DNA of 64,000 bases from an uncultured virus (IMG/VR IMGVR_UViG_3300023371_000084) (Duplodnaviria; Heunggongvirae; Uroviricota; Caudoviricetes): the IMG/VR virus record IMGVR_UViG_3300023371_000084; one strand, 5' to 3'. A program made the position numbers and the translations under genes. The notes under the pieces are model-generated. The model did no database searches. It was not told where the DNA came from and saw only the letters and a program-made list of their open reading frames with translations. This document shows positions 16,449 to 63,476 of the stretch, piece by piece (position 1 is the stretch's first letter; each line of letters starts with the position of its first letter).

Positions 16449-16883
16449 TTAATAAAGGCAAAATTTAGCAACAAAATCTGCTGCCGCAATGACATTCGGC
16501 TCCCACCTGAACAAAGAGAGCTTAATCCACGGATGAAGATCGCGCTTCCCGCCAAAGCCGACAACATAGATATGTTTATTGCCGAAGGAGTTGATTGCAT
16601 TGATGTAGCCAAGCTCGTAATGTGTGCCAATGCTATCTTCAATGCCATCCAGATTGATAACGACGACATCGCTGTCACGAATCTGCGCAAGATCCCATTC
16701 TTTTGCCTCTGCCTCCACGCTAGATGCATCCGGGTCGTTTGGGTCATAGAACAGCGGAGGATTAACTACTTTGACGCTAATGCCCATAACGTCATCGAGC
16801 AAAGAAGCAAACTCTGTGCGCCAGCCAAGCTGCTCTTCGCGCGTCAAACCGCTCATTTTCCCTGCCGTATAAATCTTCTTCAT
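16449..16883 (-). CDS. nucleoside 2-deoxyribosyltransferase-like protein
   Basis: KIYTAG.M.G, D...I..SD.VV, SIGT..ELGY motifs. Confidence 0.8.
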   Translation of the reverse strand: MKKIYTAGKMSGLTREEQLGWRTEFASLLDDVMGISVKVVNPPLFYDPNDPDASSVEAEAKEWDLAQIRDSDVVVINLDGIEDSIGTHYELGYINAINSFGNKHIYVVGFGGKRDLHPWIKLSLFRWEPNVIAAADFVAKFCLY

Positions 16884-17444: not shown

Positions 17445-17684
17445 TTACTCATATGTACTATGTTCAATTTTCAGCATTTCGGCCTTTTCTGAAACAGAAA
17501 GATCATCCCATGCCCCATCAACATACTTCTTTGCGCACTCTTCGCACAAGTCCTGACCATCCATGGCGTGCATAGCGTAATCGCCGCATTCATCGCAGTA
17601 GACGACGGTTACGCTATAATACGGGCATCCGCTTTTCAAACATGGCAAACCACAATCGACACACAAGCTCTCTTTGGTTTTCAT
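17445..17684 (-). CDS. Cys-rich hypothetical protein
   Basis: multiple CxxC motifs. Confidence 0.55.
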   Translation of the reverse strand: MKTKESLCVDCGLPCLKSGCPYYSVTVVYCDECGDYAMHAMDGQDLCEECAKKYVDGAWDDLSVSEKAEMLKIEHSTYE

Positions 17685-18358
17685 GAGGATACCTTCTTTG
17701 GCATCTTACCACAAGACTTCTTTTCCGGGCAGTATCCAAGCACTTTGCACTTCGGAGCCATTTGCGTATCAACAATATACGCCCATTCATCAGAATAAGC
17801 CTTCAGCGCTTCACAGATATCATTGAACAGTTCTCGATACTCCCAATACGCGCGAGTACACATCCTCTGACGAGACATGTCAATCATATTTCTCGGATTT
17901 CGCTTGTCCACAATCTTCGTGGTCATGCCCAGCGGCAAAGCCATAGCGCTATCTTCACGCGGAATCTTCTCTTCCTCAAGCTGCTGGCACCCGTCGCTGA
18001 TCGCTTTCATAATGCCATCGTAAATCGCTTTGGCCTTTTCGTTGCGCTCAATGGTATGCGGCGTAACATACTCGAAGTTTTTGTAATTGATATAGCGCGT
18101 GCTTGCCTGAAGGCGAGACGGACTGCCGCCAACATGCGTATACCATTCGCGGATGACACGAGCTGAATATCCCTCAATAATCATCTCGATATTTGGGTAC
18201 TCAATCGTTCTGCCATGGCCGGACTCTAAGCAGTCCAGACCTCGCTTATAATTTTTCTCTTCGTTTGTGACATCTGCACCCCAGCACACGCCAGCTCTAT
18301 GACCGATGAGCGTAATGGGTTTCTTTGTTGTTTCTGGAAGAATTGTAATCTTGCCCAT
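17681..18358 (-). CDS. thyX: FAD-dependent thymidylate synthase
   Basis: SGH...IE, S.LQASTRY, LP...T, R.C.RAYWE.R; RHR motif diverged (THV). Confidence 0.85.
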   Translation of the reverse strand: MGKITILPETTKKPITLIGHRAGVCWGADVTNEEKNYKRGLDCLESGHGRTIEYPNIEMIIEGYSARVIREWYTHVGGSPSRLQASTRYINYKNFEYVTPHTIERNEKAKAIYDGIMKAISDGCQQLEEEKIPREDSAMALPLGMTTKIVDKRNPRNMIDMSRQRMCTRAYWEYRELFNDICEALKAYSDEWAYIVDTQMAPKCKVLGYCPEKKSCGKMPKKVSS

Positions 18359-27713: not shown

Positions 27714-28628
27714 TCAGCCTCCTCGTACATACTTATCGATATACTCACGGTCTTTTGTAAAAATTGGGATCTCCATATCAACAATCCATCTGGATCGCTG
27801 AATGGTTGGAACATCGAGTTCTGGTGCGATAGGAATGAATTCAATGTCCTGCCAGTTTTCAGGAGAATCCTTCTTTGGACGAACCTTTGTCATTGGAACC
27901 TTCGTTTCGTAGGTCTCCTTGATCACACAGGAACCGCGCTTCTTATGCGTTTCAATGTCGTTCCAGTTGATACCATACTTTTCAATGAGCATGTCCTGAA
28001 TCTGGCTGGTATTCTTGTCGTTCATCTCTTTATGAGAGAAATATGCTCTGCCAAGCATATTGATGGAATTCCTAGATGCGTCCTGCTGCCGCCAGATGAA
28101 GTAATTGCACACCTCTTCTTTGGGGAGAAGGAATGCACGGGCATCGAACATTGCCATGCCACATTTTGCTTTATACCTGTTCATTACTTCGGCATATGCC
28201 TTTTGACGATCTTCCGTAGTGTTATGCAATTCATCGTTGTAAGCATAATTTGCTGCATCAAAAGTTGCATCGGTAAATGCTTGGTTGAACGCCATAGTCG
28301 CCATACTTGCTGCGACGGACACCATCTTCTGCAAATTCTTGCTAAACCATGGCTGCGTATTGAACGTCTTATAATCCGTCAGAAGAAGTGAAATCTCGTC
28401 CGACTGCGTATAAGCAAGCTTGCACCCCTCGATGTTTTCGCACAGATACTTCGCTGTCTGCTGCATCGAAGAAATGAGAACGTTGTCATATGGCTGCGTA
28501 AAATTGCGGGTATAACTACGGAACGCCTTGCCATCAATACGGATAATCAGAGGCATGCGCCTAGTCAGATAAATGCGATGCACATTTTGATATGCTTTCA
28601 TTCGGTCGCCAAGTGCGTCTCTATTCAT
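27714..28628 (-). CDS. tRNA(His) guanylyltransferase Thg1-like protein (3'-5' polymerase)
   Basis: IRIDGKAF..YT, YTQSDEIS, FDAR, YF.WRQ.D..RNSI. Confidence 0.93.
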   Translation of the reverse strand: MNRDALGDRMKAYQNVHRIYLTRRMPLIIRIDGKAFRSYTRNFTQPYDNVLISSMQQTAKYLCENIEGCKLAYTQSDEISLLLTDYKTFNTQPWFSKNLQKMVSVAASMATMAFNQAFTDATFDAANYAYNDELHNTTEDRQKAYAEVMNRYKAKCGMAMFDARAFLLPKEEVCNYFIWRQQDASRNSINMLGRAYFSHKEMNDKNTSQIQDMLIEKYGINWNDIETHKKRGSCVIKETYETKVPMTKVRPKKDSPENWQDIEFIPIAPELDVPTIQRSRWIVDMEIPIFTKDREYIDKYVRGG

Positions 28629-34254: not shown

Positions 34255-35091
34255 TCAGGGCTCATATCTTTCATCCAGTCCATCTTTTACCTCGGATTCA
34301 ATTGCACACTTCATAACTTCAACAAGCGTTTTGTTCAGCAATTCTTCTACAGCATGATTGACGTATCTATCATGGACGACCTTATACGCCTCTACAGCGT
34401 CCGTCATCACATCGACGATCTCATCTGCTCTACGCACCGCATCGTGAAGTGGAAGTTCTTGCTTTTTCAGAGAAATCAGATAATCACGGTTCTGACTGAT
34501 CAAACACTCTTCATACGGAACGCCGTTTGTATACCGATAGAAGAATTCCAAGATGCGCTCCATATGATGAAGCTGTTTGCCATCATAACCATATTTCTTC
34601 ACAACCTCCGCTGCGGACGGATGCGGCTTCATGAGCATGCTGCGTTTCTGATTAACCATACCAAGCATGCAATGGAGAGCTGCATAATTGCTGTAATGCG
34701 CAATCTCTTCACGTCTAATGAACACATCGCTCATCTGCTCGTCATACTTTGGATTGACGATGTTCCATTTTGTAAACAGGATCTCAAGGAAGTTGATGTT
34801 TTGCTTCTTAAAGCAATCAAACATCAATCGGATATCCTTGACATCCACATGTTCATCGTTGGGCATGACAAGCGTAGTCGATATTGGCTGCTTATTAAGC
34901 GCAATATCCTCAAGAGATGGAAGAACAATGATCTTTGTGTCGATATCGCTGGTTTCATAATCCAGACCGTAGTTCTGAGATCCCTGAAGGAAAATGCCAA
35001 TCCAATCGTTTGGATATGTTTTCAGGTAATGATTCAAGTGCTCTCTCAGCCTTGACTCAATGATCATGTCTTTTCTTAGCTCTTCCGGCAT
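34255..35091 (-). CDS. DNA polymerase beta-superfamily nucleotidyltransferase (RlaP-like)
   Basis: GSQNYGL....SDIDTK, N.N.LE.L, YD.K.L.H..R. Confidence 0.85.
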   Translation of the reverse strand: MPEELRKDMIIESRLREHLNHYLKTYPNDWIGIFLQGSQNYGLDYETSDIDTKIIVLPSLEDIALNKQPISTTLVMPNDEHVDVKDIRLMFDCFKKQNINFLEILFTKWNIVNPKYDEQMSDVFIRREEIAHYSNYAALHCMLGMVNQKRSMLMKPHPSAAEVVKKYGYDGKQLHHMERILEFFYRYTNGVPYEECLISQNRDYLISLKKQELPLHDAVRRADEIVDVMTDAVEAYKVVHDRYVNHAVEELLNKTLVEVMKCAIESEVKDGLDERYEP

Positions 35092-35095
35092 TTAA

Positions 35096-35893
35096 TCACC
35101 CTCTTCGTAAAGTGAATTCAATTGGAATGCGAAATACCGGAATGGGCTTCAGCTTAAACTCGTTCTTTTTGTGGAGATAGTCAATCTTTGCCTTGATTGC
35201 AATATCTTTGCACTCTCCCGTCCTGATGTAATGATCAAGAACCGCATAAGAGAAGCCAAAGCTGTCTTCGTCCGTCTTGCCACACAGACCATCGCTGGGA
35301 ACCTTCCTGACCATCTCTTCCGGCAAACCAAGCGCAAGCCCAATCTGTACCACTTCGCTGCAAGTCAGTCCACCAAGCGGAGCAAAATCGCCTGCGCCAT
35401 CTCCATATCGGGTAGAATAACCAATCCAATCCTCGGAAAGATTGCATGTATTGGCTACGCGACCACCGATGCTCTGGCTGATTGCATACAAGGTTGCCAT
35501 GCGAATACGCGGAGGAAGATTGATCATCGCCTGCTCAGTCATACTGATCGCTCCAGACGTATAAGAATAGTCTGCTTGGCAACGATATAAGCTATATGGC
35601 ATACAGATTTCGGTTGCAATATCGTTACATGCATCTTCAATGTTGATCTGAACAAAATCAATACCAAGATGGTTCACAACATCTGCCGCATCATCGATAT
35701 CCGGCTGTTCACCATTGGGCATCAGCACACCAAACACACGATCACGGCCAAGAGCTTCTACACAAAGCGCCGCAACGACGGTGGAATCCTTGCCGCCTGA
35801 AATACCAATTACAGCTTTGCATCCGCTGCCGTTTTCTTCAAACCAATTGCGAATCCATTCTACGCACTGGTCTTTAAGTTTCATAGCGTCCAT
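35096..35893 (-). CDS. nadE: NH3-dependent NAD+ synthetase
   Basis: GISGGKDS, N..PRIRM..LY, TCNLSE..GYSTRYGD, PSDGL...TDE. Confidence 0.95.
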   Translation of the reverse strand: MDAMKLKDQCVEWIRNWFEENGSGCKAVIGISGGKDSTVVAALCVEALGRDRVFGVLMPNGEQPDIDDAADVVNHLGIDFVQINIEDACNDIATEICMPYSLYRCQADYSYTSGAISMTEQAMINLPPRIRMATLYAISQSIGGRVANTCNLSEDWIGYSTRYGDGAGDFAPLGGLTCSEVVQIGLALGLPEEMVRKVPSDGLCGKTDEDSFGFSYAVLDHYIRTGECKDIAIKAKIDYLHKKNEFKLKPIPVFRIPIEFTLRRG

Positions 35894-35897
35894 CTTA

Positions 35898-36362
35898 TCA
35901 GCCTCCGTTATATTCGCAGACAATGACATCATCTGAATCGTCGCAGAAGACTTCCTCGATCATCTGATACACGATAGACCAATCGCCGCCTCCACGATGA
36001 CAACCCATCAGATACGGAATGGCAATACGCTTGCCAACACAATTGGTTTTTACAGTTTCAAGACACTTGCGAAGAGCGTCATAGTCGGTATAACATGCGC
36101 CGTCATAGCCAAAGTTCTCCTGAGCAAACAGGTTTGCAATAAACATATTGGAATCAGCCATGACGATCTGGGCGATGCCAAGCAGATCACGTCGAGCGCC
36201 AGCCTTTGCATCGCATGCCTTTTTATAGGCATAGTAGACTCGCGGGAAACGCTTGCGAACTTGCAGGGCAACACCGCTGCCCATAGCGCCCTGACAATTG
36301 ACCTGATGTAGAACAACGTCTGCACCAGAGTCAAAAATGTTGCACTTTACATGCTGGATCAT
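35898..36362 (-). CDS. macrodomain (ADP-ribose processing, Poa1p/DarG-like)
   Basis: HQVNCQG.MGSGVA, IANLF.Q, IAIPY.MGC..GG.DW. Confidence 0.9.
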   Translation of the reverse strand: MIQHVKCNIFDSGADVVLHQVNCQGAMGSGVALQVRKRFPRVYYAYKKACDAKAGARRDLLGIAQIVMADSNMFIANLFAQENFGYDGACYTDYDALRKCLETVKTNCVGKRIAIPYLMGCHRGGGDWSIVYQMIEEVFCDDSDDVIVCEYNGG

Positions 36363-37879
36363 TAGAAATTTCCTCCATTCAGGATATCTCGCACTTCACT
36401 GAGCTTCTGTGTTCTGAGCATGCCGCCATTACAGAAGACCGGACGAAGAAGATTGGTGCTCGTACAAGATTCATTCCACGTATGACCATCTGTATAGACG
36501 AGCTTTCCGCTTTCATCGCGCCTGACGATACAGCATCCCTTCTGAGACTTCTTAAAGCCGCCGTCCTTGGGATTCTTGAAGATCGGGACGGGCTTACCGT
36601 CGATCTCGCAATATGTCGCCTTGATACAGGAAGAGAAGGTGTCGCGCGTAAACGGCTTGAGCACATTGGCATACATACCGCCACCCTCAATCCTATCCTC
36701 GATGAACTCATACTCTTCGATGCACTGCATAGAGAACGAGCCAACGCCGAGCGCCACATTACAGGCCGCAAAACCATTCTCTTTAAGAATCTCATAAATC
36801 TTCTCGCAACGCTGAATGGTAATGGAATCCCCATAAATCGCCTTGACATGCGGATCGAGCACCTTATAACCCTTGGAGTTGATCTTGCCGCCAAACATGT
36901 CCCAAAGCTTAAAGACAGTCTCAGTTACAACTTCGACGCAATCGCCAGAATCGCCGCGCATGAGCATACAGCCGTTGTGTGCAAGAATCTCCTCCTTAAT
37001 CTGCGGAAGGATATTGTCGATGACATTCCAGTAATCGTAACTATCCAGCACGCAGGAGAAGCTTGTATTTGGATAAATCTCCGTGAGCAAGCGCTTTAGC
37101 AGCGTCACTTCATCGCCATCGACGGCAAAGTTTGAACACATAACAGAATGCTCCGTGCTTGCACTGCCAAAGGCAACAGCTTCCTTTGTGCAATCACAAT
37201 CATACATCTGCTCAAGATATGGGATTGTCGGCACGGTTGCAGTATTGAGGAAGGACAGGCACCAGCCAGCGCCAGCCTTGACAGCAGACTGTAAGCACTC
37301 TTCTCCACGGAAATCAAACGCGCCAAGCGCCTTTGAACGAGAAATATTGTCGTCACACGTCTCGTCGTAATACTTATTGACAATCTGACGATAGGTGTGA
37401 CCAACCGTTGCTGCAATCATCGGATGCCACATTTCAGCGGAAATAAGGCTTTCCAGCGCCTGCGGGAGCCAAGCAAAATCATCATGCGTATTGGTAATAC
37501 CGAACATCGGCACATGCATAGGAACCTTGGTTCCTTCCGGCAGTGCAATGATCTTGATAGGCAGATATCCAAGAGCATGAAGCTTTTCGATCTTCTCAAT
37601 GCCGTAAACGCCCTTGCCAAGTGCAGCGTCCATAACGCGCTTATACTCGCCGACAGCCTCTTCATACGGCTTATTAAAGAATTCCTGATTGAAATAGTCA
37701 ATCAGATACGTCTTGATAAACGCCTGCAAGCCAAACATGACAACGCTATCCCACATCTTCACACGGCTCATACGTGGCGTGAAATAGGAAACGGATTTGG
37801 TAATGCCCTTGGGAAGCATTTCCGCATGGACAGCCTTATAAAAATCGATAAGGAGCATTGGATTCGTATTACATCTCAT
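36362..37879 (-). CDS. NAMPT-fold nicotinamide/nicotinate phosphoribosyltransferase (Namat-like)
   Basis: DFYK..H, FGLQ, F..RG, STEHSV, DSYD, R.DSGD, IYGDSIT, GVGS, KKS.KG. Confidence 0.9.
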   Translation of the reverse strand: MRCNTNPMLLIDFYKAVHAEMLPKGITKSVSYFTPRMSRVKMWDSVVMFGLQAFIKTYLIDYFNQEFFNKPYEEAVGEYKRVMDAALGKGVYGIEKIEKLHALGYLPIKIIALPEGTKVPMHVPMFGITNTHDDFAWLPQALESLISAEMWHPMIAATVGHTYRQIVNKYYDETCDDNISRSKALGAFDFRGEECLQSAVKAGAGWCLSFLNTATVPTIPYLEQMYDCDCTKEAVAFGSASTEHSVMCSNFAVDGDEVTLLKRLLTEIYPNTSFSCVLDSYDYWNVIDNILPQIKEEILAHNGCMLMRGDSGDCVEVVTETVFKLWDMFGGKINSKGYKVLDPHVKAIYGDSITIQRCEKIYEILKENGFAACNVALGVGSFSMQCIEEYEFIEDRIEGGGMYANVLKPFTRDTFSSCIKATYCEIDGKPVPIFKNPKDGGFKKSQKGCCIVRRDESGKLVYTDGHTWNESCTSTNLLRPVFCNGGMLRTQKLSEVRDILNGGNF

Positions 37880-38657
37880 ACTGAATTACCTCGATCTTTG
37901 GATGTGAAGCGGTGAAGATGGAGCCTGTGGTAAATACCTTTTCAATCAGGCCAGATTCAAGAAGTTCACCATCGAGAATGGTATTCTCACAATGGGTAAC
38001 GCACAGATAAATCTTGCCTGCGCCAAGCTCTTTGAGCTTCTTTGCGCTATGATAGAACGTTCCTCCACGGGAACAGATATCATCGACAATCAGAATATCT
38101 TTTCCCCTAATCTCATCGGCATCTCCAACGACATCCAGCCCAAGGATCTTTCCGGTTTTCCAATCGCGCTTTTTGATACCGAAAACATACTTGGCCTTTA
38201 CCTCTTCCGAATATCGCTTCATTGCTCCCTCATCGGGATAGAAGAATAGCGGTGCGCCGATTCTGCTTGCTACGTGAGCAATAAGATCGCTCGCCGATAC
38301 AATAACTGCGCGATCAATGAGCGCTTCGGAAACATGAGAATGCGGATCAAGGACAACAACTTCATTGAATCCAAGATCGTTGATCACTTCGGCAAAGTAT
38401 TTGAGCGTGAACACCTCGTCGCTATTCTTGATGCGATCCATACGTGCATTTGGCACGTAGGGCATAATCAAATGAATATCCTTATTACTACGCTCCTTGA
38501 TATGCTTGGTTAAGCAAATCAGCGTAAACAACTCTTCATTGCTCTCAAACAGCCACTTGATTGTGTGATGAGACTTGCCTGAACATGAGGCGTTAAAATG
38601 AATCGTACCATCCGGGAAATATCCGGGCTTAACGATTTCGCCATTATACTTAATCAT
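37869..38657 (-). CDS. PRPP synthetase-like pyrophosphokinase (Adps-like)
   Basis: FPDG, PY.PNAR.DR, DPHS, PD.GA.KR, K.RD, IVDDICS.GGTF. Confidence 0.9.
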   Translation of the reverse strand: MIKYNGEIVKPGYFPDGTIHFNASCSGKSHHTIKWLFESNEELFTLICLTKHIKERSNKDIHLIMPYVPNARMDRIKNSDEVFTLKYFAEVINDLGFNEVVVLDPHSHVSEALIDRAVIVSASDLIAHVASRIGAPLFFYPDEGAMKRYSEEVKAKYVFGIKKRDWKTGKILGLDVVGDADEIRGKDILIVDDICSRGGTFYHSAKKLKELGAGKIYLCVTHCENTILDGELLESGLIEKVFTTGSIFTASHPKIEVIQYEM

Positions 38658-38668
38658 GGCAAATCTCC

Positions 38669-39184
38669 TTACTCTCCAATCACATTGATCTGACAGGACT
38701 TCATGACGGTGAGCGCAGCATTATGTGCTTCAACAGAGGTTCCAGCACAACAGGAAGCATCAACAGTAATCTCAACTTCCGGGTACATCGCCTTGAGAAT
38801 CAATGCATTGGACACAACGCAGATGTCCGTGCATACGCCAATCATTTCAATCTGATCAAAGTCGCCAAGATCCCAGCCAAGATAGCCGAAAGTTGGCTTT
38901 GTGATGCACTGATGTGCATTTCCATTCAGGTTATTCAGATTCTGGACAACCATCCATCCATGTGCCCCGGCAATACAATGCTGCACCGGAAGCTTCTTGC
39001 CCTCCTGCGTCATCATGTAATCCGCATCGTGCGTATCAAGCGTGAAAATCACATGCGTACCTTCATTCTGCGCCTGCTCAATCTTCGCTTTTACGCCGTT
39101 ATAGATCGACTGCGCATTAGCACTGCCAAGCGCACCAAACACAAAATCGTTCTGATAATCGACAACAATAAGAACCTTGTTCAT
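38669..39184 (-). CDS. pncA: nicotinamidase (isochorismatase family)
   Basis: VVDYQNDF, DTH, HC, K.TFG, GVCTDICV Asp-Lys-Cys triad. Confidence 0.85.
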   Translation of the reverse strand: MNKVLIVVDYQNDFVFGALGSANAQSIYNGVKAKIEQAQNEGTHVIFTLDTHDADYMMTQEGKKLPVQHCIAGAHGWMVVQNLNNLNGNAHQCITKPTFGYLGWDLGDFDQIEMIGVCTDICVVSNALILKAMYPEVEITVDASCCAGTSVEAHNAALTVMKSCQINVIGE

Positions 39185-42997: not shown

Positions 42998-43933
42998 TTA
43001 CTCAATTGGAACATGAATATACTCAAGAACGTCTTTCATCCCCAGACCCCCATTTTCCCATGGGCGCATGCAGTAATCCCATAGATTTGGATGCGTGTCC
43101 TTTAGTTGTTGAAATCGATTCGGCTCTCCATCCAAATGACACCCAAAGCCACAAAATACACATCCTGTCCTCTTACATTTGGTTGTCTTAAACTTTCCTT
43201 TTTTGTCCGTAATAATATCGCCATATACGGATGCGTAAGGAATCTGAAACCTATGTAAATAATCCAGAATATCATTCTCTGTCCAAAAAGACATAGGTTT
43301 CGATCTGGGCTCTCTGTCAGAGAATGCATTGCAGCCATTAACCAGCCAATCATTCCTGCGGTGTACAGATTCACATGCCATCGTTGCAAACATTGGCACT
43401 CTTCCCGTCTCTTTTGCAAATTTCTTGTTTGGTCGCTTTTTCATAACCTCGCAGCAATAATCTGAAATACGAAATGGCGCATCGACAAGATATGCATATT
43501 TACCATTTGAGAAGCCAAACAATTTGCTATCCATTTCGCCACGTAAGTATTTCGCACGCATTGAATCAGGATTACGCCTCGCTGTTGCAACATATCCAGC
43601 AACCCTTTTGCTGATCATTGGGTATCCGAACTCTTCTATTACTTTGCGGAAATTCATTGCTGGCTTTAACCATACTACGTTTGGGATGGATTTTACAAAT
43701 TCCCTGAGTTCTGGAAATTCCAGTCCCGTATCAATAAACACTGCCGGGACATCTGGATATATCCTTCGCACAAGGTCAAGAAGAACGGTTGAATCCTTGC
43801 CACCGCTAAAGCTTACATAAACCTTACCGTTATAGTGATTGTACCACTCCATAATTCTGGTTTGTGTTACCTGAATCTTGCGTTCAAGCGGCCATGCCTG
43901 CATGATTTTCAAGTCCTCCGATGTATATGTCAC
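42998..43933 (-). CDS. PAPS reductase-family (PP-loop) protein
   Basis: SFSGGKDS, DTGLEFPE, CC..MKK.P, RTGC.FC. Confidence 0.88.
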   Translation of the reverse strand: MTYTSEDLKIMQAWPLERKIQVTQTRIMEWYNHYNGKVYVSFSGGKDSTVLLDLVRRIYPDVPAVFIDTGLEFPELREFVKSIPNVVWLKPAMNFRKVIEEFGYPMISKRVAGYVATARRNPDSMRAKYLRGEMDSKLFGFSNGKYAYLVDAPFRISDYCCEVMKKRPNKKFAKETGRVPMFATMACESVHRRNDWLVNGCNAFSDREPRSKPMSFWTENDILDYLHRFQIPYASVYGDIITDKKGKFKTTKCKRTGCVFCGFGCHLDGEPNRFQQLKDTHPNLWDYCMRPWENGGLGMKDVLEYIHVPIE

Positions 43934-51550: not shown

Positions 51551-51916
51551 TTACGTACCCCACTCTTTAATCTGAATGCCATTCTCTCTAAACCAGTTAG
51601 CGACCAAATGACGATGACAGAAATCCTCCGGCTTCTCGTAGCAGACAAGCGCGATATTCTCAGCGCCGCCAGACAAAGCTTTCAGTTCTTCAAGAACGCG
51701 GTTTGCATCAAGCATCAGCAGCACCTGCTCGTTATAGCATTGCACGTAGTAATGGTTGTCTCTGGTTTCCTTCCATTTCTGGAAGAACGCATACATAGGC
51801 GCGAGCGTCTTATACTGCAAACCCTTGTATCCACCCGGCGCTTTCCCGCAAATACTGATGGGGATAATATCCGGCGGGAGCTTTTTCACATTTGCAAAAT
51901 AGGTTGTGTAGAGCAT
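51551..51916 (-). CDS. DUF488-like protein
   Basis: YTTYFA, LAP, LVCYEKP.DFCHRHLVA.W. Confidence 0.75.
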   Translation of the reverse strand: MLYTTYFANVKKLPPDIIPISICGKAPGGYKGLQYKTLAPMYAFFQKWKETRDNHYYVQCYNEQVLLMLDANRVLEELKALSGGAENIALVCYEKPEDFCHRHLVANWFRENGIQIKEWGT

Positions 51917-53564: not shown

Positions 53565-53945
53565 TTACTCTGAACCCTTTCCATAAAGCTTGACGGCAAC
53601 CATCAGGCCGCGCCGCTTTGCCTCAGCAATCATGTGCTTTGTGCCAGTAGACTTTTCATCCCAGAAAGCAATGAGTGCATCTGCATTCTCGGCCATCTTG
53701 ACATTGCGGCGGATACCAGCGGATTTACCATAGATATCCCAATAAGCGGGATATAATCTTGCCTCATAACCGCTTTCCTGCGCATATCGCTCGCCCAGCA
53801 TATCAGCGCCCCTCGCATGACCACTGACAATGACAATCTTATGGTCGATACACATTCTTGAAAGCTTCTTATCGCAATACGCTTTCAGCAATTCATAGTC
53901 GTTGAACGTCCGTGTTCCTGCAATGATCACTCTGAACGTACCCAT
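53565..53945 (-). CDS. SLOG-superfamily protein (DUF2493/YspA-like)
   Basis: IIAG.R.F.DY, SG.ARGAD, W..YGK.AG..RN..M, AFWD..S.GT..MI. Confidence 0.85.
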   Translation of the reverse strand: MGTFRVIIAGTRTFNDYELLKAYCDKKLSRMCIDHKIVIVSGHARGADMLGERYAQESGYEARLYPAYWDIYGKSAGIRRNVKMAENADALIAFWDEKSTGTKHMIAEAKRRGLMVAVKLYGKGSE

Positions 53946-55983: not shown

Positions 55984-56057
55984 TGGTGCAAACAACGGGA
56001 ATCGAACCCGCATCCTCTGAATGGGAATCAGATATGTTTCCACTACACCATGTCTGC
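55984..56057 (-). tRNA. tRNA-Gly(CCC)
   Basis: cloverleaf, TCTGA-TTCCCAT-TCAGA, encoded CCA. Confidence 0.9.
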
Positions 56058-56177
56058 AAACAAAAGAGAAGCTGCGCAATCATCGGAATCGACAGACACT
56101 ATGCGAGGCTGGTCTGTCTGAGCCGCCAAGTCTTTCATGCGCTTATCCATCCAATGTTTTCGTAGCTTCTCTATATA

Positions 56178-56263
56178 TGGTGCCGGACGTGGGACTTGAA
56201 CCCACACGTCATAAGACAACGGATTTTGAATCCGCCGCGTCTGCCAGTTCCGACCAGTCCGGC
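56178..56263 (-). tRNA. tRNA-Leu(CAA)
   Basis: cloverleaf with long variable arm, CCA. Confidence 0.92.
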
Positions 56264-56270
56264 AAGAAAA

Positions 56271-56360
56271 TGGCGGGGAGTAAGGGATTTGAACCCTTGC
56301 GCGGGGTTGCCGCCTAGCGGTTTTCAAGACCGCCCCCTTCAGCCGCTTGGGTAACTCCCC
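56271..56360 (-). tRNA. tRNA-Ser(TGA)
   Basis: cloverleaf, long variable arm, GCCA end. Confidence 0.92.
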
Positions 56361-56404
56361 GTGAAATGCCCGCAGGGGAAGCGGGCAAGTGTCTATGTGG
56401 AAGA

Positions 56405-57337
56405 TTACTCTCCCACGTCGCCGATATCGATAATCGGCATGCCGCCAGACACCTTCGGCATTGCGCCATCCCATCGCTCGTACTTAATCTTCTCGATCAG
56501 CTCCGGCGTGAGAGATGCGGCAATCAGCTTGTTCGCATCCGCTTCGGCTCCTGCCTGAATCATCAGCGCATCTGCCTCGGCCTGCGCAGCGATGATCTGA
56601 CGCTCTGCATTCACAGAGGCCACATCTTTTTCCTTTTCCGCCGCAATTAGAGCAACCTGCTTATCCTTCTCTGCCTGAATCCTTGCAGTCTCAGACTGAA
56701 TACGCGCAAGTTCCTGTTCCTGCTGTGCGTTGACCTTCTGCTGAATAGCCTTTGCAGTCTCTTCATCCACGCGGATATCTGTGAAGTTCACCGTATCGAT
56801 AATGATGCCGTACTGGTCAAACTTCTCCTTCAGGTGAATATCCAGCTCATTGTTAATCACCGTTCGCTGATCGCCGAAGATATCGGCAACCGGATGATTG
56901 GCAGAAACTTCCTGTGTCCATGCCTTGATCTTCGGCTTAATAAACGTGGTCTTGATCGACTCGCCAGACTGTCCCTTGAAGAGCTTAAATGTGTCGGCAA
57001 TCCGCTCGCTATCAAAATAGTACGAGAACTCAAGGCTGACATTCACCGTCTTACCATCGCTGGTCGGAATGTTAAACGACTCATCGCCAGAGGAATCCTG
57101 TGTAGACTCCGCCGTGAGACCAGACTGCTCAAGGCCGATGGTGTACGTCGTTACCTTCTTCGTCGGAGCGACCAGCTTCCAGCCCTGCGTGAGAACTTCA
57201 TCGCCAACGCCGCCGTTCATGTCATAGACAATACCGACGTATCCAGCAGGAATGCGTACTGCACAGCCGATAAGCACGCCAGCAATGATCACAAGAATCA
57301 CAGCAAGCAGGATGCCGCCAATTTTTCCACTATTCAT
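56405..57337 (-). CDS. SPFH/Band-7/prohibitin family membrane protein
   Basis: N-terminal TM, I.AGYVGI, T.DG..V, coiled coil, E.WDG..P. Confidence 0.9.
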   Translation of the reverse strand: MNSGKIGGILLAVILVIIAGVLIGCAVRIPAGYVGIVYDMNGGVGDEVLTQGWKLVAPTKKVTTYTIGLEQSGLTAESTQDSSGDESFNIPTSDGKTVNVSLEFSYYFDSERIADTFKLFKGQSGESIKTTFIKPKIKAWTQEVSANHPVADIFGDQRTVINNELDIHLKEKFDQYGIIIDTVNFTDIRVDEETAKAIQQKVNAQQEQELARIQSETARIQAEKDKQVALIAAEKEKDVASVNAERQIIAAQAEADALMIQAGAEADANKLIAASLTPELIEKIKYERWDGAMPKVSGGMPIIDIGDVGE

Positions 57338-57519
57338 TCTTCTTTACCTCCGTCATTTTCGTTTGTGATTGATATATCCTTTGGATCTTCCGACGTCATA
57401 GCATCGTAGGAATCCTTGAATATCCGCTTAAAGAATCTGCCGATTGCCTTATACGCAAATGCGAGAAGGAACCATAGGACAATCAGCCCAAGAAATGCCA
57501 GAAACCAGAACACAGGCAT
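57334..57519 (-). CDS. small membrane protein
   Basis: hydrophobic N-terminus, AGGAG RBS, coupled to SPFH gene. Confidence 0.65.
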   Translation of the reverse strand: MPVFWFLAFLGLIVLWFLLAFAYKAIGRFFKRIFKDSYDAMTSEDPKDISITNENDGGKEE

Positions 57520-57812
57520 ATGACTACTTACTCTCCTTTGTACTTTTCTTCGATCTGCTTGTGATAATCAGATGGAAAGAATCGATTGACCATGCACGCA
57601 AGGGCAACCACTCCGGTAACCATTGCGCATGCGATTGCAAAATCGTTCATTCGCACGTCACCGCTTCCAGAGCTTCAAGCTTCCTCAGCTTTCGCTTCAG
57701 CTTGCCAATGATTCGCGCATTGACAACGGGATCGCGCTGCTCAAGCAGATTGATTCGCGCCTTGACTGATTCGATGAATGCCATAATGTGTACCTCCGAT
57801 GTTATTTATTTC

Positions 57813-57888
57813 TGGAGCTGGCGAAGGGAGTCGAACCCACAACCTGCGGATTACAAATCCGCTGCTCTGCCAATTGAGCTACGCCAGC
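57813..57888 (-). tRNA. tRNA-Thr(TGT)
   Basis: cloverleaf, GCGGA-TTTGTAA-TCCGC, CCA. Confidence 0.93.
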
Positions 57889-58470
57889 AAATAAACAAAA
57901 CTGATTTACAAGTAAACAAGGATTGCAACTTGGCCTGCCGCATACACGCGAAGCTTCGACATGATGATCAGAGATCGACTTCGCCCACGCCTCGTTCTTT
58001 GCCCTCCTCTGCCACACGACAAGAGGCAATCCATGTTTACCCTCGGAACTTTTCACCACAACGCCCTGCATGCGTCGTATCCGATTCATCCATTAAGATC
58101 CTGTGGTGGATTCGATACGGTGTCATGATCTGGTTAGTCCTGTATCGCATCATATATTGAAGCTTTCGCCCTCGCAGACACACATGCAGCAGCATCCGCA
58201 ATTCTCTGCAAGCCTCAATCTGCTGTCCGTCGGCATAAATCGCCAATCAGACGCTGATCTTACTCGCAGCCAGATCGAGCAAATTCCAGATTTTTTCGTT
58301 GTCCGCCAACTATCTGAGGTCATACGTCCCAGCACTGGAATGGGTTTATCGGCTCCATCCCGCCACTCCGGTTCCCTGAGCCCGGCATCTCTTTCGGATT
58401 ATTGTGATGTCTGGACACCGCCGCTTGATCTTACTTATTCATGCGCCACTGAGCGGCAGACAGGGCGCGT
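57889..58470 (-). ncRNA. candidate large structured ncRNA (ROOL-like)
   Basis: ~580 nt between tRNA-Gly and tRNA-Thr, many hairpins, no convincing RBS-led ORF. Confidence 0.5.
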
Positions 58471-58544
58471 TGGTGCAGCAGGCGGGAATCGAACCCGTTT
58501 CCGAAGAGTGGAAGTCTCCTATTTTACCAGTAAACTACTGCTGC
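58471..58544 (-). tRNA. tRNA-Gly(TCC)
   Basis: cloverleaf, GGAGA-CTTCCAC-TCTTC, CCA. Confidence 0.88.
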
Positions 58545-58547
58545 AAA

Positions 58548-58624
58548 TGGTCTGAGTGAAGGGATTCGAACCCCCGACTTCATGCTCCCAAAGCACGCGC
58601 TCTACCAAACTGAGCTACACCCAG
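58548..58624 (-). tRNA. tRNA-Pro(TGG)
   Basis: cloverleaf, CCA. Confidence 0.93.
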
Positions 58625-58629
58625 ATAGA

Positions 58630-58706
58630 TGGTTGCGAGAGGCTGGATTCGAACCAGCGATCTTCAGCTCATGAGGCTGACGAGATGACCACTTCTCTAC
58701 TCCGCA
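58630..58706 (-). tRNA. tRNA-Met(CAT), initiator-like body
   Basis: cloverleaf, TCAGC-CTCATGA-GCTGA, ends CGCAACCA. Confidence 0.85.
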
Positions 58707-58713
58707 ATATAAA

Positions 58714-58798
58714 TGGTGCCGACGATGGGACTTGAACCCACAAGCTTGATAGCAGCGGATTTTAAGTCCGCTCCGTTTGCCAATTCCGTCACGTCGGC
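58714..58798 (-). tRNA. tRNA-Leu(TAA)
   Basis: cloverleaf, long variable arm, CCA. Confidence 0.92.
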
Positions 58799-58802
58799 GA
58801 GA

Positions 58803-58879
58803 TGGTTGATCTTTAGGGGCTTGAACCCTAGACTTAGTGATTATGAGTCACTTGCTCTGACCAACTGAGCTAAAGATCA
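58803..58879 (-). tRNA. tRNA(CAT), probably Ile2 (or elongator Met)
   Basis: cloverleaf; body resembles Bacillota tRNA-Ile2 (CTTTAGCTCAGTTGGT.AGAGCA). Confidence 0.85.
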
Positions 58880-58888
58880 TTGGGAAAA

Positions 58889-58976
58889 TGGCGGCGAGTA
58901 CAGGATTTGAACCTGTGGGCGGTTTCCCGCCAATGGTTTAGCAAACCATCACCATAAACCACTCGGACAACTCGCC
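58889..58976 (-). tRNA. tRNA-Ser(GCT)
   Basis: cloverleaf, long variable arm, GCCA. Confidence 0.9.
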
Positions 58977-58979
58977 GTT

Positions 58980-59062
58980 TGGTGCGGGTGAAGGGATTTG
59001 AACCCATACGCTTTTGGCAACAGATCCTAAATCTGCCGCGTCTGCCATTCCGCCACACCCGC
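58980..59062 (-). tRNA. tRNA-Leu(TAG)
   Basis: cloverleaf, GCAGA-TTTAGGA-TCTGT, CCA. Confidence 0.92.
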
Positions 59063-59105
59063 AAGATGTGTTTATACTTTTTCTGCTTTGGTTTTTTAGG
59101 GAAGT

Positions 59106-59201
59106 AGATTCGCAATCATCGGAAATCAAAGGCTCTGCTTAGAAATCTTCAAAATATACCTAGTTAGAAGGATGAACCTTTCAGCCGAATCATGCGAATC
59201 T
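59106..59201 (-). ncRNA. Y-RNA-like repeat, copy C
   Basis: stem-GGCTG-AAAGGTT-CATCCTTCT...GAGCCTTT-GATTTCC-stem. Confidence 0.6.
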
Positions 59202-59209
59202 TATATGTA

Positions 59210-59348
59210 AATGTTGGAAATCGCTGCCTCGTTTCTATCTGTTGCTCTACCGACTGAGCTAACCGCCAGCACACGCCAGCGGTGCAGGACTCGAACCTGC
59301 GACACGCAGCTCCCAAAGCGAAGAAGGATGAAGCATCCAGCCAACATT
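59210..59348 (-). ncRNA. Y-RNA-like (YrlA-like) RNA with permuted tRNA domain, copy B
   Basis: terminal stem AATGTTGG/CCAACATT; T-arm, loop-closed acceptor stem, then D-arm. Confidence 0.75.
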
Positions 59349-59393
59349 GCAGATTATCCTCCGGCTTTATTCCTTTGGCCTCACTGCTCTTAC

Positions 59394-59433
59394 ATTATAC
59401 ATCATCAGATTGTATCTGTCAATACTTTTTCTG
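59394..59433 (-). promoter_or_regulatory. consensus sigma-A promoter driving Y-like RNAs B/C and the tRNA array
   Basis: CAGAAAAAGTA-TTGACA-17 nt-TATAAT (TG immediately before the -10 box). Confidence 0.8.
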
Positions 59434-59445
59434 ATTTATTTTTAG

Positions 59446-59559
59446 AAATTTCGGAAATCTGTCACCCGGTCTTGTTGTTATGAACACTTCGCAGCTTTTA
59501 GCTGCAAAGCACTCACTGTATAGAATTAGAAAGAAGGATGGACGACACAGCCGAAATTT
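59446..59559 (-). ncRNA. Y-RNA-like repeat, copy A
   Basis: stem-GGCTG-TGTCGTC-CATCCTTCT...long GU-rich hairpin...GGGTGACA-GATTTCC-stem. Confidence 0.6.
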
Positions 59560-59612
59560 GGGGAAATCCCCGTCTATATGAAGGGCGAACGCCCGGAGGC
59601 TGACACACAACC

Positions 59613-61880
59613 TTACAGCAGATTACCCATGATGTAATCCATGTCAAAGGCCGTAATGATTGGTGTGTCCTTTTCACGGTTCACCATTTCAAGCTGATGC
59701 TCAGAACCTTCCACCATCACACATTCGATGGGCTTGGTCGTGTCATTGCTGAAAATGATATCCGCTTCGTTGCGGTTGTCCGTGATTGTTCCTCTTGCTT
59801 TTGCATTGAGCGCAATCAGATCATACAGATTGGGCTTGTTGAGATGCATCATGGCATAACAGATGGCCTGAACCTGAGAGAAGTTGTTTTCAATGTTATT
59901 GCCTCTGCTGGAAGCAAAGCTGTCGATAGACAGGCACATATCCAACCAGACAAATCGCTTCTCCTTGCAGTCAAAGATGACTGGAATGGAAACCTTGCTG
60001 TCAGAGGACACATTCATACACATCTCTACCGTGCGCGGCTCAAAGATTTCGCCGGAATTCTGGCTCTCCCTCTCCATCCAACCGAATCGGCTATTTGGCA
60101 TAGACGAGAACGGCTGCTGCGTGAAGCTATACACTTGGAAGCAGACATAACGGCCATGCTTTGCAGCCTCATCAATATTGATGTCGAGAAATTCTGCTAC
60201 GCCCTTACCCTTTACGCTTCCGCCATCGACAATATCGCCGGAATGAACGGCCATACAGCCGGAACGCAGATTGGTATAGGATACATGGGATACATACTTG
60301 AAATCCTCATCGAGAATACAGGCAGAAAGATCGATATCTACGCGGTTTTCATCACCGCGCCAATAATTCAAATCTTCATCCTTGATCTGCTTATCCGTAT
60401 TTGTCCACCAGATGAACGCACGGACAAACTTTGCATCCTTGCTGATCGGGATTGAGCTACCACGAACCATGATCTTGCTGCCGCTGGACGCGCTGCGCTG
60501 GCTGAACGGAACCATGAAGTTTTCCAGCTCAGGATCGACATAAACCCTGCCCATCTCCGGCTTATCCTTTTTAAACTGCGCGATGATTGCATTATTGCAG
60601 ATCATGACAACGCGCCTGCAAATTTCGTAGTCGATGGGTTTGAGTTCATTTGGCTCAACGATGGCATGCGCTACGCTGCCCTTCGGGAAGAAGACACGAA
60701 TGGGCGCATCGTTCTTATGACGAGCAAGGAAATGCTGACGAACCTGCAAAAGAACCGGGACGGCCACACGATCTGCAACCTTTTCAAACATGTCCACAAT
60801 ATCCTTTTGCCAATCCGTATCGCGGATGAGCTTATCGAGCCTGCGTGCAAACTCGCCGGGACGCTCCATCAGGAGATTAGCTGCCCCGACCATATCGCCC
60901 TTGGCGATCATGGTTTCCACATAGCCCGGATAGAGAAGCGGCTTTTTATCGTTTCTAAGCGACCTGAAATAATCGCATACGCCGCGATATTTCGGTTTAC
61001 CGACATATTCTCCGACATGCAGGATTTCTGCAACGCGAATCCACTCATCACGATAGCGGAAGAGGTCTTCGTAAATATCCCCGCAATGCGCAAGGAGATC
61101 CAGAATCATCCGGCGCTCCGATCTCTTGAGCGACCTGAACTTCGTTTTATCAGCCAAGCTGATATCGCCATCAGACATGGAAACGATGAGTCGAAGAACA
61201 TCCGTCGCCGTGGAGAAATACCGCTCGATGCACTTGGACGACTTTAGCGGCGACTTTTCGATAATGAGCTTTGAAATGAACGCCACATTCTCCTTGAGCG
61301 GAATCTCTTCCGGCATATGCTTGACATGGCTGACATTGTTTAAAACAATCCATTCCACATCTGCTTTATCCTGCTCAGACAGAGAAGTCTTGCTTCTAAG
61401 AAGATTGGAGAAGATATCCATCAGGTCTGCACCGTTTTCATCGGCAAGCGTCAGAATTTTCGCCTTGCACGTATCAAGCATAGGAAGACGCTCTTCCTTA
61501 ACGTATTCCGGCAGATACTCGCCATCCGTCACGTAATGCATGAGCGCATTGAAGAACAGCTCGATCAGAGGCGCATCGATAACCTGCTGTGGGAAGTTCG
61601 GATACATCGGATGATACTCCACATCCGCGCCGACCAACTTCTTGAGCATTGGAATGAGCTGCTTATAGAAGTCTTCCAGCTCTTTGTCGTTGTAATACAG
61701 CAGACGAGTCGCCGTATCCATGGAGAATGCAAAACCTAACGACTCCACATTCTTCGCCATGGCAAGCACTAGATTGGCACGGTCTGGATTGTAGAACCCA
61801 GCGTGGCGCTCAGGAATGGTGAGCTTATTTCTTCGGCGCAGAACAATTTCGTTAATCACAATGGCCGGATTACTCATCAT
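59613..61880 (-). CDS. large helical (TROVE/Ro-like?) protein with C-terminal TerD-like domain
   Basis: TATDVLR, RPGEFARRLD helical region; C-terminal DIDLSA, HSGD, G.AEF.DI TerD motifs. Confidence 0.75.
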   Translation of the reverse strand: MMSNPAIVINEIVLRRRNKLTIPERHAGFYNPDRANLVLAMAKNVESLGFAFSMDTATRLLYYNDKELEDFYKQLIPMLKKLVGADVEYHPMYPNFPQQVIDAPLIELFFNALMHYVTDGEYLPEYVKEERLPMLDTCKAKILTLADENGADLMDIFSNLLRSKTSLSEQDKADVEWIVLNNVSHVKHMPEEIPLKENVAFISKLIIEKSPLKSSKCIERYFSTATDVLRLIVSMSDGDISLADKTKFRSLKRSERRMILDLLAHCGDIYEDLFRYRDEWIRVAEILHVGEYVGKPKYRGVCDYFRSLRNDKKPLLYPGYVETMIAKGDMVGAANLLMERPGEFARRLDKLIRDTDWQKDIVDMFEKVADRVAVPVLLQVRQHFLARHKNDAPIRVFFPKGSVAHAIVEPNELKPIDYEICRRVVMICNNAIIAQFKKDKPEMGRVYVDPELENFMVPFSQRSASSGSKIMVRGSSIPISKDAKFVRAFIWWTNTDKQIKDEDLNYWRGDENRVDIDLSACILDEDFKYVSHVSYTNLRSGCMAVHSGDIVDGGSVKGKGVAEFLDINIDEAAKHGRYVCFQVYSFTQQPFSSMPNSRFGWMERESQNSGEIFEPRTVEMCMNVSSDSKVSIPVIFDCKEKRFVWLDMCLSIDSFASSRGNNIENNFSQVQAICYAMMHLNKPNLYDLIALNAKARGTITDNRNEADIIFSNDTTKPIECVMVEGSEHQLEMVNREKDTPIITAFDMDYIMGNLL

Positions 61881-62175
61881 CGTCTTCACTCCACTCTTCA
61901 TCGTCTTCATCATCTTCGGCGTACTCAGACAGGCGATCAAGAATCTTGGATACCAGCGCAAGCGCATCAACCTGACCCATGTCGCTTTGATACATCCACT
62001 CTCCGCCGCAGCTCAACGCAAGATCGTGCTTAGAAGCGTACTTATCAATCTCGTCGATTACGCGAACTGCAACATCAAGAGCATGCTTTTGCTCATCGTT
62101 TGCAACGCTGCGCACAGACAGAAGATGGGCGCACAGCTCCGTTTTCAGTCGAGTTCCCTTAACGGTGTTTTCCAT
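61870..62175 (-). CDS. hypothetical protein
   Basis: AGGAAGG RBS, acidic tail, coupled to TerD-like gene. Confidence 0.6.
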   Translation of the reverse strand: MENTVKGTRLKTELCAHLLSVRSVANDEQKHALDVAVRVIDEIDKYASKHDLALSCGGEWMYQSDMGQVDALALVSKILDRLSEYAEDDEDDEEWSEDDDE

Positions 62176-62212
62176 ACTTCACCTGTTCCTTCCTATTTGT
62201 ATAGGCAGGATT

Positions 62213-62500
62213 TTACTCCTCGCCGATAATCTCCAGAATCTTTTCACGAACCTTGTTATTGTCCTCGATTGCGCGGACACACTCTTCTCGCTTACCCTTT
62301 GCGAAGTTTTCCAGAATGGTAAAGCGCTCAACGGAAGCCTGAAGCTCCTCGTTATTGGCCTGCAAGCTCTGCGCAGTCTGTCTAAACGTCCTGACGGCAT
62401 TCTCGCGCATCAGGTTCAGATGAGCGACGTCATCTGAAATCTTGGTAGTGGCCGCAGAAATGACTTGCTCGGTTGTCTTCTTCTTATTCATCATACCCAT
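62213..62500 (-). CDS. hypothetical coiled-coil protein
   Basis: AAGGAG RBS. Confidence 0.6.
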   Translation of the reverse strand: MGMMNKKKTTEQVISAATTKISDDVAHLNLMRENAVRTFRQTAQSLQANNEELQASVERFTILENFAKGKREECVRAIEDNNKVREKILEIIGEE

Positions 62501-62521
62501 TTTCTTTTTCTCCTTTTTTCA

Positions 62522-63290: not shown

Positions 63291-63399
63291 ATCACCCCAT
63301 AAAATGCTCGTTTTATTGTGTATAAATAGCGCATATATTATCCATACATGCCTATATTTGCGCATTATGGATCGTATATTATACGCATAAATGCATAGA

Positions 63400-63476
63400 T
63401 GGTGGAGCTGAAGGGAATCGAACCCTCGACCTCCTGCTTGCAAGGCAGGCGCTCTAGCCATCTGAGCTACAGCCCC
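63400..63476 (-). tRNA. tRNA-Ala(TGC)
   Basis: cloverleaf, G3:U70, CCA. Confidence 0.95.

Follow-up and report, generated by a model that had tools for sequence, protein, structure and literature searches.

A 64-kb stretch of DNA from an uncultured virus (IMG/VR record IMGVR_UViG_3300023371_000084; 64,000 nucleotides, hereafter termed the window), which forms part of a large phage or prophage, carries six open reading frames (ORFs) that run on the minus strand from 39184 down to 34255, neighbouring genes lying at most 11 nt apart or overlapping by up to 35 nt (Table 1). Family assignment by Pfam, NCBIfam and PHROGs profile scans yields a nicotinamidase (PncA), a Prs-like enzyme, a transferase of the Namat type, a macrodomain protein, an NAD synthetase (NadE) and a pol-beta nucleotidyltransferase, and all six ORFs lie where an earlier note, made from the letters of the sequence, had placed this tightly coupled series. 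The Prs-like and Namat-type genes overlap by 11 nt; such a pair (Adps + Namat) constitutes NARP1, a nicotinamide adenine dinucleotide (NAD+) reconstitution pathway described in phages SPbetaL1, Bas63 and ICP1 and also in Paenibacillus foliorum (bioRxiv 10.1101/2024.02.11.579819; PMC12774641; PMC13586617). We consider it quite likely that the module in the window routes the rebuilding of NAD+ through nicotinic acid (NA), because its transferase no longer has the nicotinamide-reading residue and is accompanied by a nicotinamidase and an NAD synthetase. A megablast search of the 4.9-kb module against GenBank phages returned zero matches, and the window DNA is without a near match there.

Table 1 Features of the NAD module, of related loci and of the remainder of the window (window coordinates, except where a locus is named)
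Feature	Position	Strand	Length or remark
Nicotinamidase, PncA-type isochorismatase-fold hydrolase	38669..39184	-	171 aa
Adps-type Prs-like enzyme, predicted ADP-ribose pyrophosphokinase	37869..38657	-	262 aa
Namat-type transferase, remodelled base pocket, predicted nicotinate ADP-ribosyltransferase	36362..37879	-	505 aa
Macrodomain, Adpp-like, predicted ADP-ribose-1''-phosphate phosphatase	35898..36362	-	154 aa
NH3-dependent NAD synthetase NadE	35096..35932	-	278 aa
RlaP-like pol-beta nucleotidyltransferase	34255..35091	-	278 aa
Ala214 codon, at the position of nicotinamide-binding Asp215 (SPbetaL1)	37238..37240	-	HMMER alignment
Ser241 codon, at the position of pocket residue Ala242 (SPbetaL1)	37157..37159	-	covaries with Ala214
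23-residue insertion I387-P409	36653..36721	-	inside clamp helix motif, before TRD
NadM-like ORF, related phage contig	L080 1480-2073	+	also in contigs G005-G008, G012
NrtR-type Nudix regulator, Clostridium intestinale	L281 9230-10129		flanks chromosomal module
NrtR-type Nudix regulator, Sphingobacterium	L249 10279-10983		flanks chromosomal module
NrtR-type Nudix regulator, Oscillospiraceae genome	L246 4730-5527		flanks chromosomal module
Tad3-family Thoeris inhibitor	L247 4607-5398	+	PF25185, 5.2e-13
NADAR-domain protein	7971-8420	-	PF08719, 102 bits
Thg1-like tRNA-His guanylyltransferase	27714-28628
tRNA genes	55984-63769	-	14 genes in three groups
Nucleoside 2-deoxyribosyltransferase-like protein	16449-16883
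ThyX	17681-18358
PAPS-reductase-like protein	42998-43933
DUF488 protein	51551-51916
YspA/SLOG-family protein	53565-53945	-

A Namat-lineage transferase with an altered base pocket

Pfam models PF04095 and PF18127 both recognise the transferase, which reaches 427.8 bits against NF006629 and 524.8 bits against phrog_448. Its best solved relative is 9w5x/9w5w (E = 6.7e-118), entries that match the Namat of Bacillus phage SPbetaL1, with which it shares 46% identity in a five-sequence alignment and 43.1% by tblastn; so close a match to a solved Namat settles the fold of the window protein. In the SPbetaL1 enzyme the nicotinamide pocket is composed of Phe189, Arg192, Asp215, Ala242, Arg306, Asp13' and Tyr15', where Asp215 hydrogen-bonds nicotinamide and the D215A substitution cuts NAD+ output 8.1-fold (PMC12774641). 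HMMER alignment sets window residues N212-T213-A214-T215 on SPbetaL1 G213-T214-D215-T216, and the Asp215 + Ala242 pair of the NARP1 Namat is replaced by Ala214 + Ser241. The earlier note had located an alanine, at this same codon, in the Asp position that selects nicotinamide, a placement that is borne out against SPbetaL1 Asp215; the note's own match, by hand alignment, was of human NAMPT NFKGTDT to window SFLNTAT. The equivalence of SPbetaL1 Asp215 with human NAMPT Asp219 is given in the legend to Figure 4A of the structural study (PMC12774641), and Asp219 is stated to set substrate specificity in a review citing Khan et al. (PMC7096376). The catalytic core is otherwise kept, with window residues D12, Y14, F188, R191, H244, R308, D310 and R412 occupying 8/8 of the corresponding SPbetaL1 positions (D13, Y15, F189, R192, H245, R306, D308 and R399).

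Pocket type and linkage to pncA and nadE

When viral contigs were searched with the window transferase, 79 loci at 46-80% identity were recovered, and alignment of 79 sequences including the window showed Ala at the site in 78, with a single outlier reading GTDT. Further scans, seeded with the SPbetaL1 Namat and with divergent Ala/Ser-type representatives, covered viral contigs, bacterial genomes and metagenomes, and together the scans gave 384 loci with a Namat/Nampt-like gene, for which flank lengths varied between scans (6-10 kb). Loci flanked by under 2.5 kb on one side or the other, or gapped at the site, were set aside (75, leaving 309), and removal of 22 duplicate proteins left 287 unique loci. 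Among 86 Ala-type loci, pncA was present in 83, nadE in 77, either gene in all 86, both in 74 and an Adps-like gene in all 86, whereas the 201 Asp/Glu-type loci contained neither pncA (0) nor nadE (0), with Adps in 192. The earlier note had proposed to check whether loss of the Asp co-occurs with pncA and nadE, and in these loci it does. The second pocket residue follows the first, as position 242 is Ser in 86/86 Ala-type and Ala in 201/201 Asp/Glu-type sequences.

A second sample of 153 sequences (profile alignment) combined the window protein and two reference Namats with the 150 best cluster representatives of a library of 1.84 billion proteins. Pocket pairs at positions 215/242 were D/A in 96, E/A in 1 and D/G in 1, versus A/S in 32, S/S in 18, V/S in 1 and A/G in 1, with three fragments among the 153 missing one or both positions; the pair Asp/Ala versus Ala-or-Ser/Ser serves as a simple sequence marker. 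For the deepest Ser/Ser lineage (the P0040 group), a viral-contig search found no close relative and a metagenome search returned one truncated locus (L361). Many Namat-like representatives (P0002, P0024, P0065 and others) have lengths of 800-1100 aa and align to the 505-aa query in 2-4 separate segments; the presence of large insertions, perhaps inteins or homing elements, would account for this pattern. In locus L244, an HNH/NUMOD4 endonuclease gene lies between Namat and NadE.

PncA matches PF00857 (3.6e-23) and phrog_19305 (120.8 bits), its best solved relatives being nicotinamidases/pyrazinamidases. D9, K96 and C122, presumably the catalytic triad of PncA enzymes, and D50, H52 and H69, presumably the metal ligands, are invariant in 57/57 unique homologues from related loci. 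NadE matches PF02540 (1.7e-49) and TIGR00552 (166.7 bits), carries an SGGKDS loop from residue 45 and has no glutaminase domain.

These data bear directly on whether the Ala-type enzyme could still use nicotinamide, as in an ordinary NARP1, with pncA and nadE travelling along for general NAD metabolism. The intact catalytic core would permit this, as would the behaviour of SPbetaL1 D215A, which loses 8.1-fold but not all of its activity (PMC12774641). PncA, however, would then destroy the substrate of its own partner, and such an arrangement is hard to reconcile with two pocket residues that covary without exception or with a linkage to pncA or nadE that is complete in one pocket type and absent from the other; we therefore regard nicotinamide use as very improbable.

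Origin and arrangement of the Ala/Ser-type modules

A tree was rooted on five coherent Nampt-like genes without an Adps neighbour, the full set of loci without such a neighbour being mixed and unusable as a root. All 45 Ala/Ser-type taxa, the window included, form one clade (support 0.997), which is nested seven nodes inside the Asp-type, Adps-linked Namats, several of the intervening nodes being weak. Within the clade the accessory genes have diverged (PncA is just 40-60% identical among close relatives) and their order has been rearranged, being PncA-Adps-Namat-(macro)-NadE in phages, TetR-Adps-PncA-Namat-NadE-NrtR in Clostridium intestinale, Adps-Namat-NadE-x-NrtR in Sphingobacterium and NrtR-PncA-Adps-Namat in an Oscillospiraceae genome. 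A linkage that persists through such divergence and rearrangement does speak for function. NrtR is an ADP-ribose-responsive regulator of NAD genes, and its presence as a flanking Nudix-type gene at the three chromosomal Ala/Ser-type modules (Table 1) points to a regulated form of the pathway that serves a housekeeping role in bacteria.

At a further locus (L247), a gene for a Tad3-family Thoeris inhibitor stands directly upstream of PncA-Adps-Namat(Ala/Ser)-NadE; a T4 Rnl1-type RNA ligase gene is found downstream of that module. The Tad3 neighbour counts in favour of the nicotinate-type NARP1 reading set out below.

The Prs-like enzyme belongs to the Adps lineage by sequence

The altered pocket and its linkage to pncA and nadE would fit equally well with plain Preiss-Handler salvage, in which PncA makes NA, the Prs-like enzyme makes phosphoribosyl pyrophosphate (PRPP), the Ala-type transferase makes nicotinic acid mononucleotide (NaMN) as a nicotinate phosphoribosyltransferase, a host NadD or phage NadM-like enzyme converts this to nicotinic acid adenine dinucleotide (NaAD), and NadE finishes. 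We hold this to be rather unlikely, though it is still a live alternative and the one with the most to be said for it. The Prs-like protein scores 116.6 bits against TIGR01251 (cut-off 113) and 233.5 bits against phrog_619; on TIGR01251, the Adps of SPbetaL1 (106 bits) and of ICP1 (98.3 bits) score similarly, compared with 346-416 bits for true Prs. With a hidden Markov model (HMM) built from 176 Adps genes beside Asp-type Namats alone, the window protein scores 243.4 bits, next to 248.8 for the verified ICP1 Adps and 240.0 for that of SPbetaL1, versus 130-136 bits for the true Prs of five module-bearing bacteria. Compared with PDB sequences, the Prs-like protein hit Prs entries only, with no Adps structure among them.

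Residues of the donor-ATP site, described in ICP1 Adps as a PP loop (Cys215-Ser220) together with Phe221/Phe223 (PMC13586617), point the same way. Position 215 (ICP1 numbering) is Cys in 192/210 Asp-linked and 77/89 Ala-linked Adps, compared with four Ile and one Cys among five Prs; Gly occupies position 218 in 207/210 and 89/89, versus Ala in 5/5 Prs; and position 221 is Phe in 207/210 and 83/89, versus Ile/Leu in 5/5 Prs. The window has the Adps-type residues at all three positions (C195, G198 and F201). By profile and residue comparison, the Prs-like gene is accordingly placed in the Adps lineage and not with housekeeping Prs, which counts against a Preiss-Handler role. Moreover, all five module-bearing bacterial genomes also encode a true Prs elsewhere (the 346-416-bit proteins above), so the Prs-like paralogue is presumably not there for making PRPP; a second PRPP synthetase would be redundant, and the linkage of Adps in 86/86 Ala-type loci counts against plain salvage as well.

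The operon macrodomain most likely matches Adpp

The macrodomain protein matches PF01661 (22.9 bits) and phrog_335, annotated 'phosphatase' (142.5 bits), and reaches 73.6 bits against NF048014, under the cut-off of 250. Its relatives in the PDB are DarG macrodomains (1.1e-10), yeast Poa1p (2.7e-6) and TARG1, and it is 35% identical (E = 3e-23) to a macrodomain located between Adps and an Asp-type Namat at locus L088. Macrodomain genes occur within 3 kb of the transferase at 13/86 Ala-type and 15/201 Asp/Glu-type loci. A macrodomain protein termed Adpp is reported from 15% of NARP1 operons; it converts the ADP-ribose (ADPR)-1''-phosphate made by aRES defence proteins to ADPR and so feeds Adps, the extended pathway being termed NARP1-AP (bioRxiv 10.64898/2026.01.28.702374). 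From its sequence and setting, the window macrodomain most likely matches this published phosphatase, and the earlier suggestion that it supplies free ADP-ribose is amended to this extent, the operon macrodomain already having a published role in feeding ADPR to Adps. Adpp-like macrodomains in the operon are sensible only with the use of ADPR, a further point against a PRPP-based route. The better match to DarG than to Poa1p makes a DNA de-ADP-ribosylating role possible as well.

Donor choice and the adenylyltransferase question

Whether the transferase takes ADP-ribose pyrophosphate (ADPR-PP) or PRPP is the less certain half of our reading. The selectivity clamp of NARP1 Namats comprises a stacking Arg/Lys/Tyr in the beta1-beta2 loop plus a helix motif, GSX-Phi-X-Phi-X-Phi-TRD, whose positions 3 and 7 are aromatic. 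In SPbetaL1 the R40A/F392G double mutant shows a 16.6-fold reduction in ADPR-PP-driven synthesis while PRPP activity is kept (PMC12774641). Both residues are preserved in the window as R39 and F382 (motif position 3), and Arg40 and Phe/Tyr392 are kept in 86/86 Ala-type sequences, unlike five Nampt-like genes without an Adps neighbour, which have T/L/E at 40, mostly H at 392 and R at 396. Motif position 7 (SPbetaL1 Tyr396) is Cys386 in the window. Clade members share an insertion of ~9 residues in the clamp helix, the window having 14 more than nearly all of them; long insertions of other kinds are found there in two further members, which indicates that this loop tolerates large additions.

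The earlier note had also relied on the lack of an adenylyltransferase, and in this the window itself agrees, as no match to PF01467 (the HIGH-motif adenylyltransferase family) was found in the 64 kb (75 ORFs with Pfam, 83 ORFs with PHROGs). The argument fails, however, in relatives, 6/13 related phage contigs containing a NadM-like PF01467 ORF (37-57 bits, ~190-207 aa) tens of kb from the module; the best NCBIfam match of this ORF is nicotinamide-nucleotide adenylyltransferase, at 54 bits and below the cut-off of 127. Six of the 13 contigs are rated 99-100% complete; two of these have the NadM-like gene, and four keep the module without any PF01467 gene. The window polymerase is closest to that of contig G002 (50-55% identity), which carries a NadM-like gene, and the genome from which the window derives may thus hold one too; genes flanking the NadM-like gene of the relatives have no homologue in the window. 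We conclude that the absence of an adenylyltransferase is a weak argument for a direct route. As a possible substitute for an adenylyltransferase, the pol-beta nucleotidyltransferase was rejected, being RlaP-like (PF10127, 22.8 bits, just below the cut-off of 23, with RlaP-like phage clusters as its atlas neighbours), without a PDB relative and unlinked to the module. The earlier note had listed it as following the five coupled genes; a relative was detected by tblastn in 1/79 related loci, at ~6.5 kb from the Namat gene, and we treat it as a neighbour and not as a conserved part.

A NadM-like gene would also be needed for a Francisella-like route, in which NaMN formed from NA and PRPP is converted by the NadE homologue, acting as a nicotinamide mononucleotide (NMN) synthetase, to NMN, from which a NadM-type enzyme makes NAD+. 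Of the solved relatives of the window NadE, the second-best (3fiu, 92.5 bits) is presumably the Francisella tularensis NMN synthetase, its database name being NAD synthetase, and six related contigs could supply the NadM step. The best solved relative (2e18) nevertheless scores higher at 128.7 bits, 7/13 contigs lack a NadM-like gene (including the four complete ones) although nadE is kept in 77/86 modules, and the Adps-lineage evidence counts against this scheme as it does against the Preiss-Handler route; it therefore seems a most improbable explanation.

Several points weigh against a nicotinate route fed by ADPR-PP. An insertion breaks up the clamp helix motif, and Cys takes the place of the adenine-stacking Tyr396 in 61/86 Ala-type sequences, changes that could relax or abolish the preference for ADPR-PP; the SPbetaL1 Namat, moreover, also uses PRPP in vitro (PMC12774641), and both observations favour Preiss-Handler salvage. 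So does the NadM-like gene, since the six phages that have it could run a mononucleotide route alone; against this, the module is retained in the four complete relatives without a PF01467 gene and, where present, that gene is far from the module. The ADPR-adenine-binding residues of ICP1 Adps (F18, R87, H121, D161 and K185) were tried as discriminators and rejected, as they are conserved in true Prs too and hence do not discriminate. The Ala type arose once, so the linkage counts represent one evolutionary event and not 86 independent ones, and the zero counts for pncA and nadE beside Asp-type Namats depend on HMMs that were built from the Ala-type clade (E = 1e-5) and could miss very divergent genes. 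Finally, the detour would cost the phage a second ATP.

A predicted route from nicotinamide to NAD+ through NaAD

On balance, and by comparison of sequences and loci, we favour the view that the operon is a nicotinate-type variant of NARP1 in which Namat joins NA directly to ADPR-PP to give NaAD. A host defence would cleave NAD+ to nicotinamide and ADP-ribose (or ADPR-1''-phosphate); PncA would convert the nicotinamide to NA, the Adpp-like macrodomain would strip the 1''-phosphate where needed, and the Adps-type enzyme would pyrophosphorylate ADP-ribose to ADPR-PP. The Ala214/Ser241 Namat variant would then combine NA and ADPR-PP directly into NaAD and pyrophosphate (PPi), and NadE would amidate NaAD to NAD+; the variant may also take PRPP, which the SPbetaL1 Namat uses in vitro. 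The genes present, their homology, the residues at the key positions and the conserved linkage are observed, and from these we infer every substrate of the scheme, above all those of the step from NA and ADPR-PP to NaAD and PPi. The core of the earlier proposal (PncA, a Namat without the Asp, and NadE) therefore persists as the best-supported reading by comparison, with its adenylyltransferase, macrodomain and nucleotidyltransferase parts corrected as above; its further suggestion, that a deamidated pool might escape host NADases, is a conjecture. How far the route stands by itself is more evenly balanced: we see about equal grounds for and against a self-contained, adenylyltransferase-free NA pathway that would act as a widespread counter-defence in large phages of anaerobes and as NrtR-linked chromosomal NAD recycling in Clostridium, Oscillospiraceae and Sphingobacterium.

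Relation to known systems

The module resembles NARP1 in its adjacent Adps-type and Namat-type pair and in the retention of the catalytic core, of clamp residues Arg40/Phe392 and of Adps-specific residues. It differs in the replacement of Asp215 by Ala, Ala242 by Ser and Gly213 by Asn, in the 23-residue clamp-helix insertion, and in an obligatory linkage to pncA/nadE, with NA as the predicted base and NaAD, not NAD+, as the predicted product. As in NARP1-AP (Adps + Adpp + Namat, described in Vibrio phage Gary; bioRxiv 10.64898/2026.01.28.702374), a Poa1p/TARG1/DarG-type macrodomain lies inside the operon, although in the window it follows Namat and precedes NadE and its sequence is nearer to DarG than to Poa1p. 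The predicted route shares its start at PncA, its passage through NaAD and its end at NadE with the bacterial Preiss-Handler pathway (PncA, PncB, NadD and NadE), but the window contains no PncB-type enzyme or NadD and instead pairs a transferase of the Nampt/Namat lineage (with the PF18127 N-terminal domain) with an Adps-type enzyme. Two further phage-encoded pathways, NARP2 (Nampt + NMN adenylyltransferase, phage KVP40) and NARP3 (PnuC + NadR; PMC13464706), likewise restore NAD+ in the face of NAD+-depleting defences; both proceed through NMN and need an adenylyltransferase, without NA, Adps or NadE, and in comparison with Nampt/NARP2 the window has an Adps partner and no PF01467 gene.

The nicotinate-route terms looked for, a set that differed between papers, are absent from the NARP1 (Osterman et al.), aRES and RyDEP preprints and from a survey of viral NAD+-ADPr systems (PMC9503650), and the NARP3 paper treats nicotinic acid only as general background (PMC13464706). 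A search of literature from 2023 on found no paper describing an NA + ADPR-PP route and, among the papers listed, none that brings ADPR-PP together with NaAD, PncA or NadE, the bioRxiv supplements, which possibly list NARP1-operon genes, lying outside its scope; judged by title or abstract, none of the papers retrieved for Namat and nicotinic acid reports such a variant.

Other genes of the window

Elsewhere the window encodes an integrase, a PolIII-alpha-type polymerase, a primase, a helicase, several DNA methyltransferases and an anaerobic ribonucleotide reductase (NrdD/NrdG). The NADAR-domain protein (Table 1) also shows a weak match to T4 gp30.3. Phage NADAR proteins have been reported as AdfN, removing DarT1-derived ADP-ribose from phage DNA (PMC11825919), and the window protein is accordingly a candidate anti-DarTG1 factor in the same phage as the NAD module. 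The clustered tRNA genes, taken together with the Thg1-like protein and the RlaP-like nucleotidyltransferase, suggest a theme of tRNA supply or repair. Five further loci encode nucleotide-related proteins, from a nucleoside 2-deoxyribosyltransferase-like protein to a YspA/SLOG-family protein.

Implications for phage NAD+ reconstitution

NAD+ depletion is a common bacterial means of anti-phage defence, to which three phage rebuilding pathways (NARP1, NARP2 and NARP3) are known in print. The Ala-type clade is common in uncultured viral contigs and nearly absent from isolated phages (of the 2039 GenBank phage records that match, only one is more than 60% identical), and surveys of isolate genomes would consequently miss it. 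If the proposed route is correct, the Namat variant would represent a new enzyme reaction in NAD biochemistry and would explain why these phages carry pncA and nadE. The module would then rank as a further, fourth phage pathway for rebuilding NAD+, and bacterial NAD salvage would gain a new branch. It would also constitute a counter-defence tuned to host metabolism, as little nicotinamide is left to an ordinary Namat in hosts whose nicotinamidase is active.

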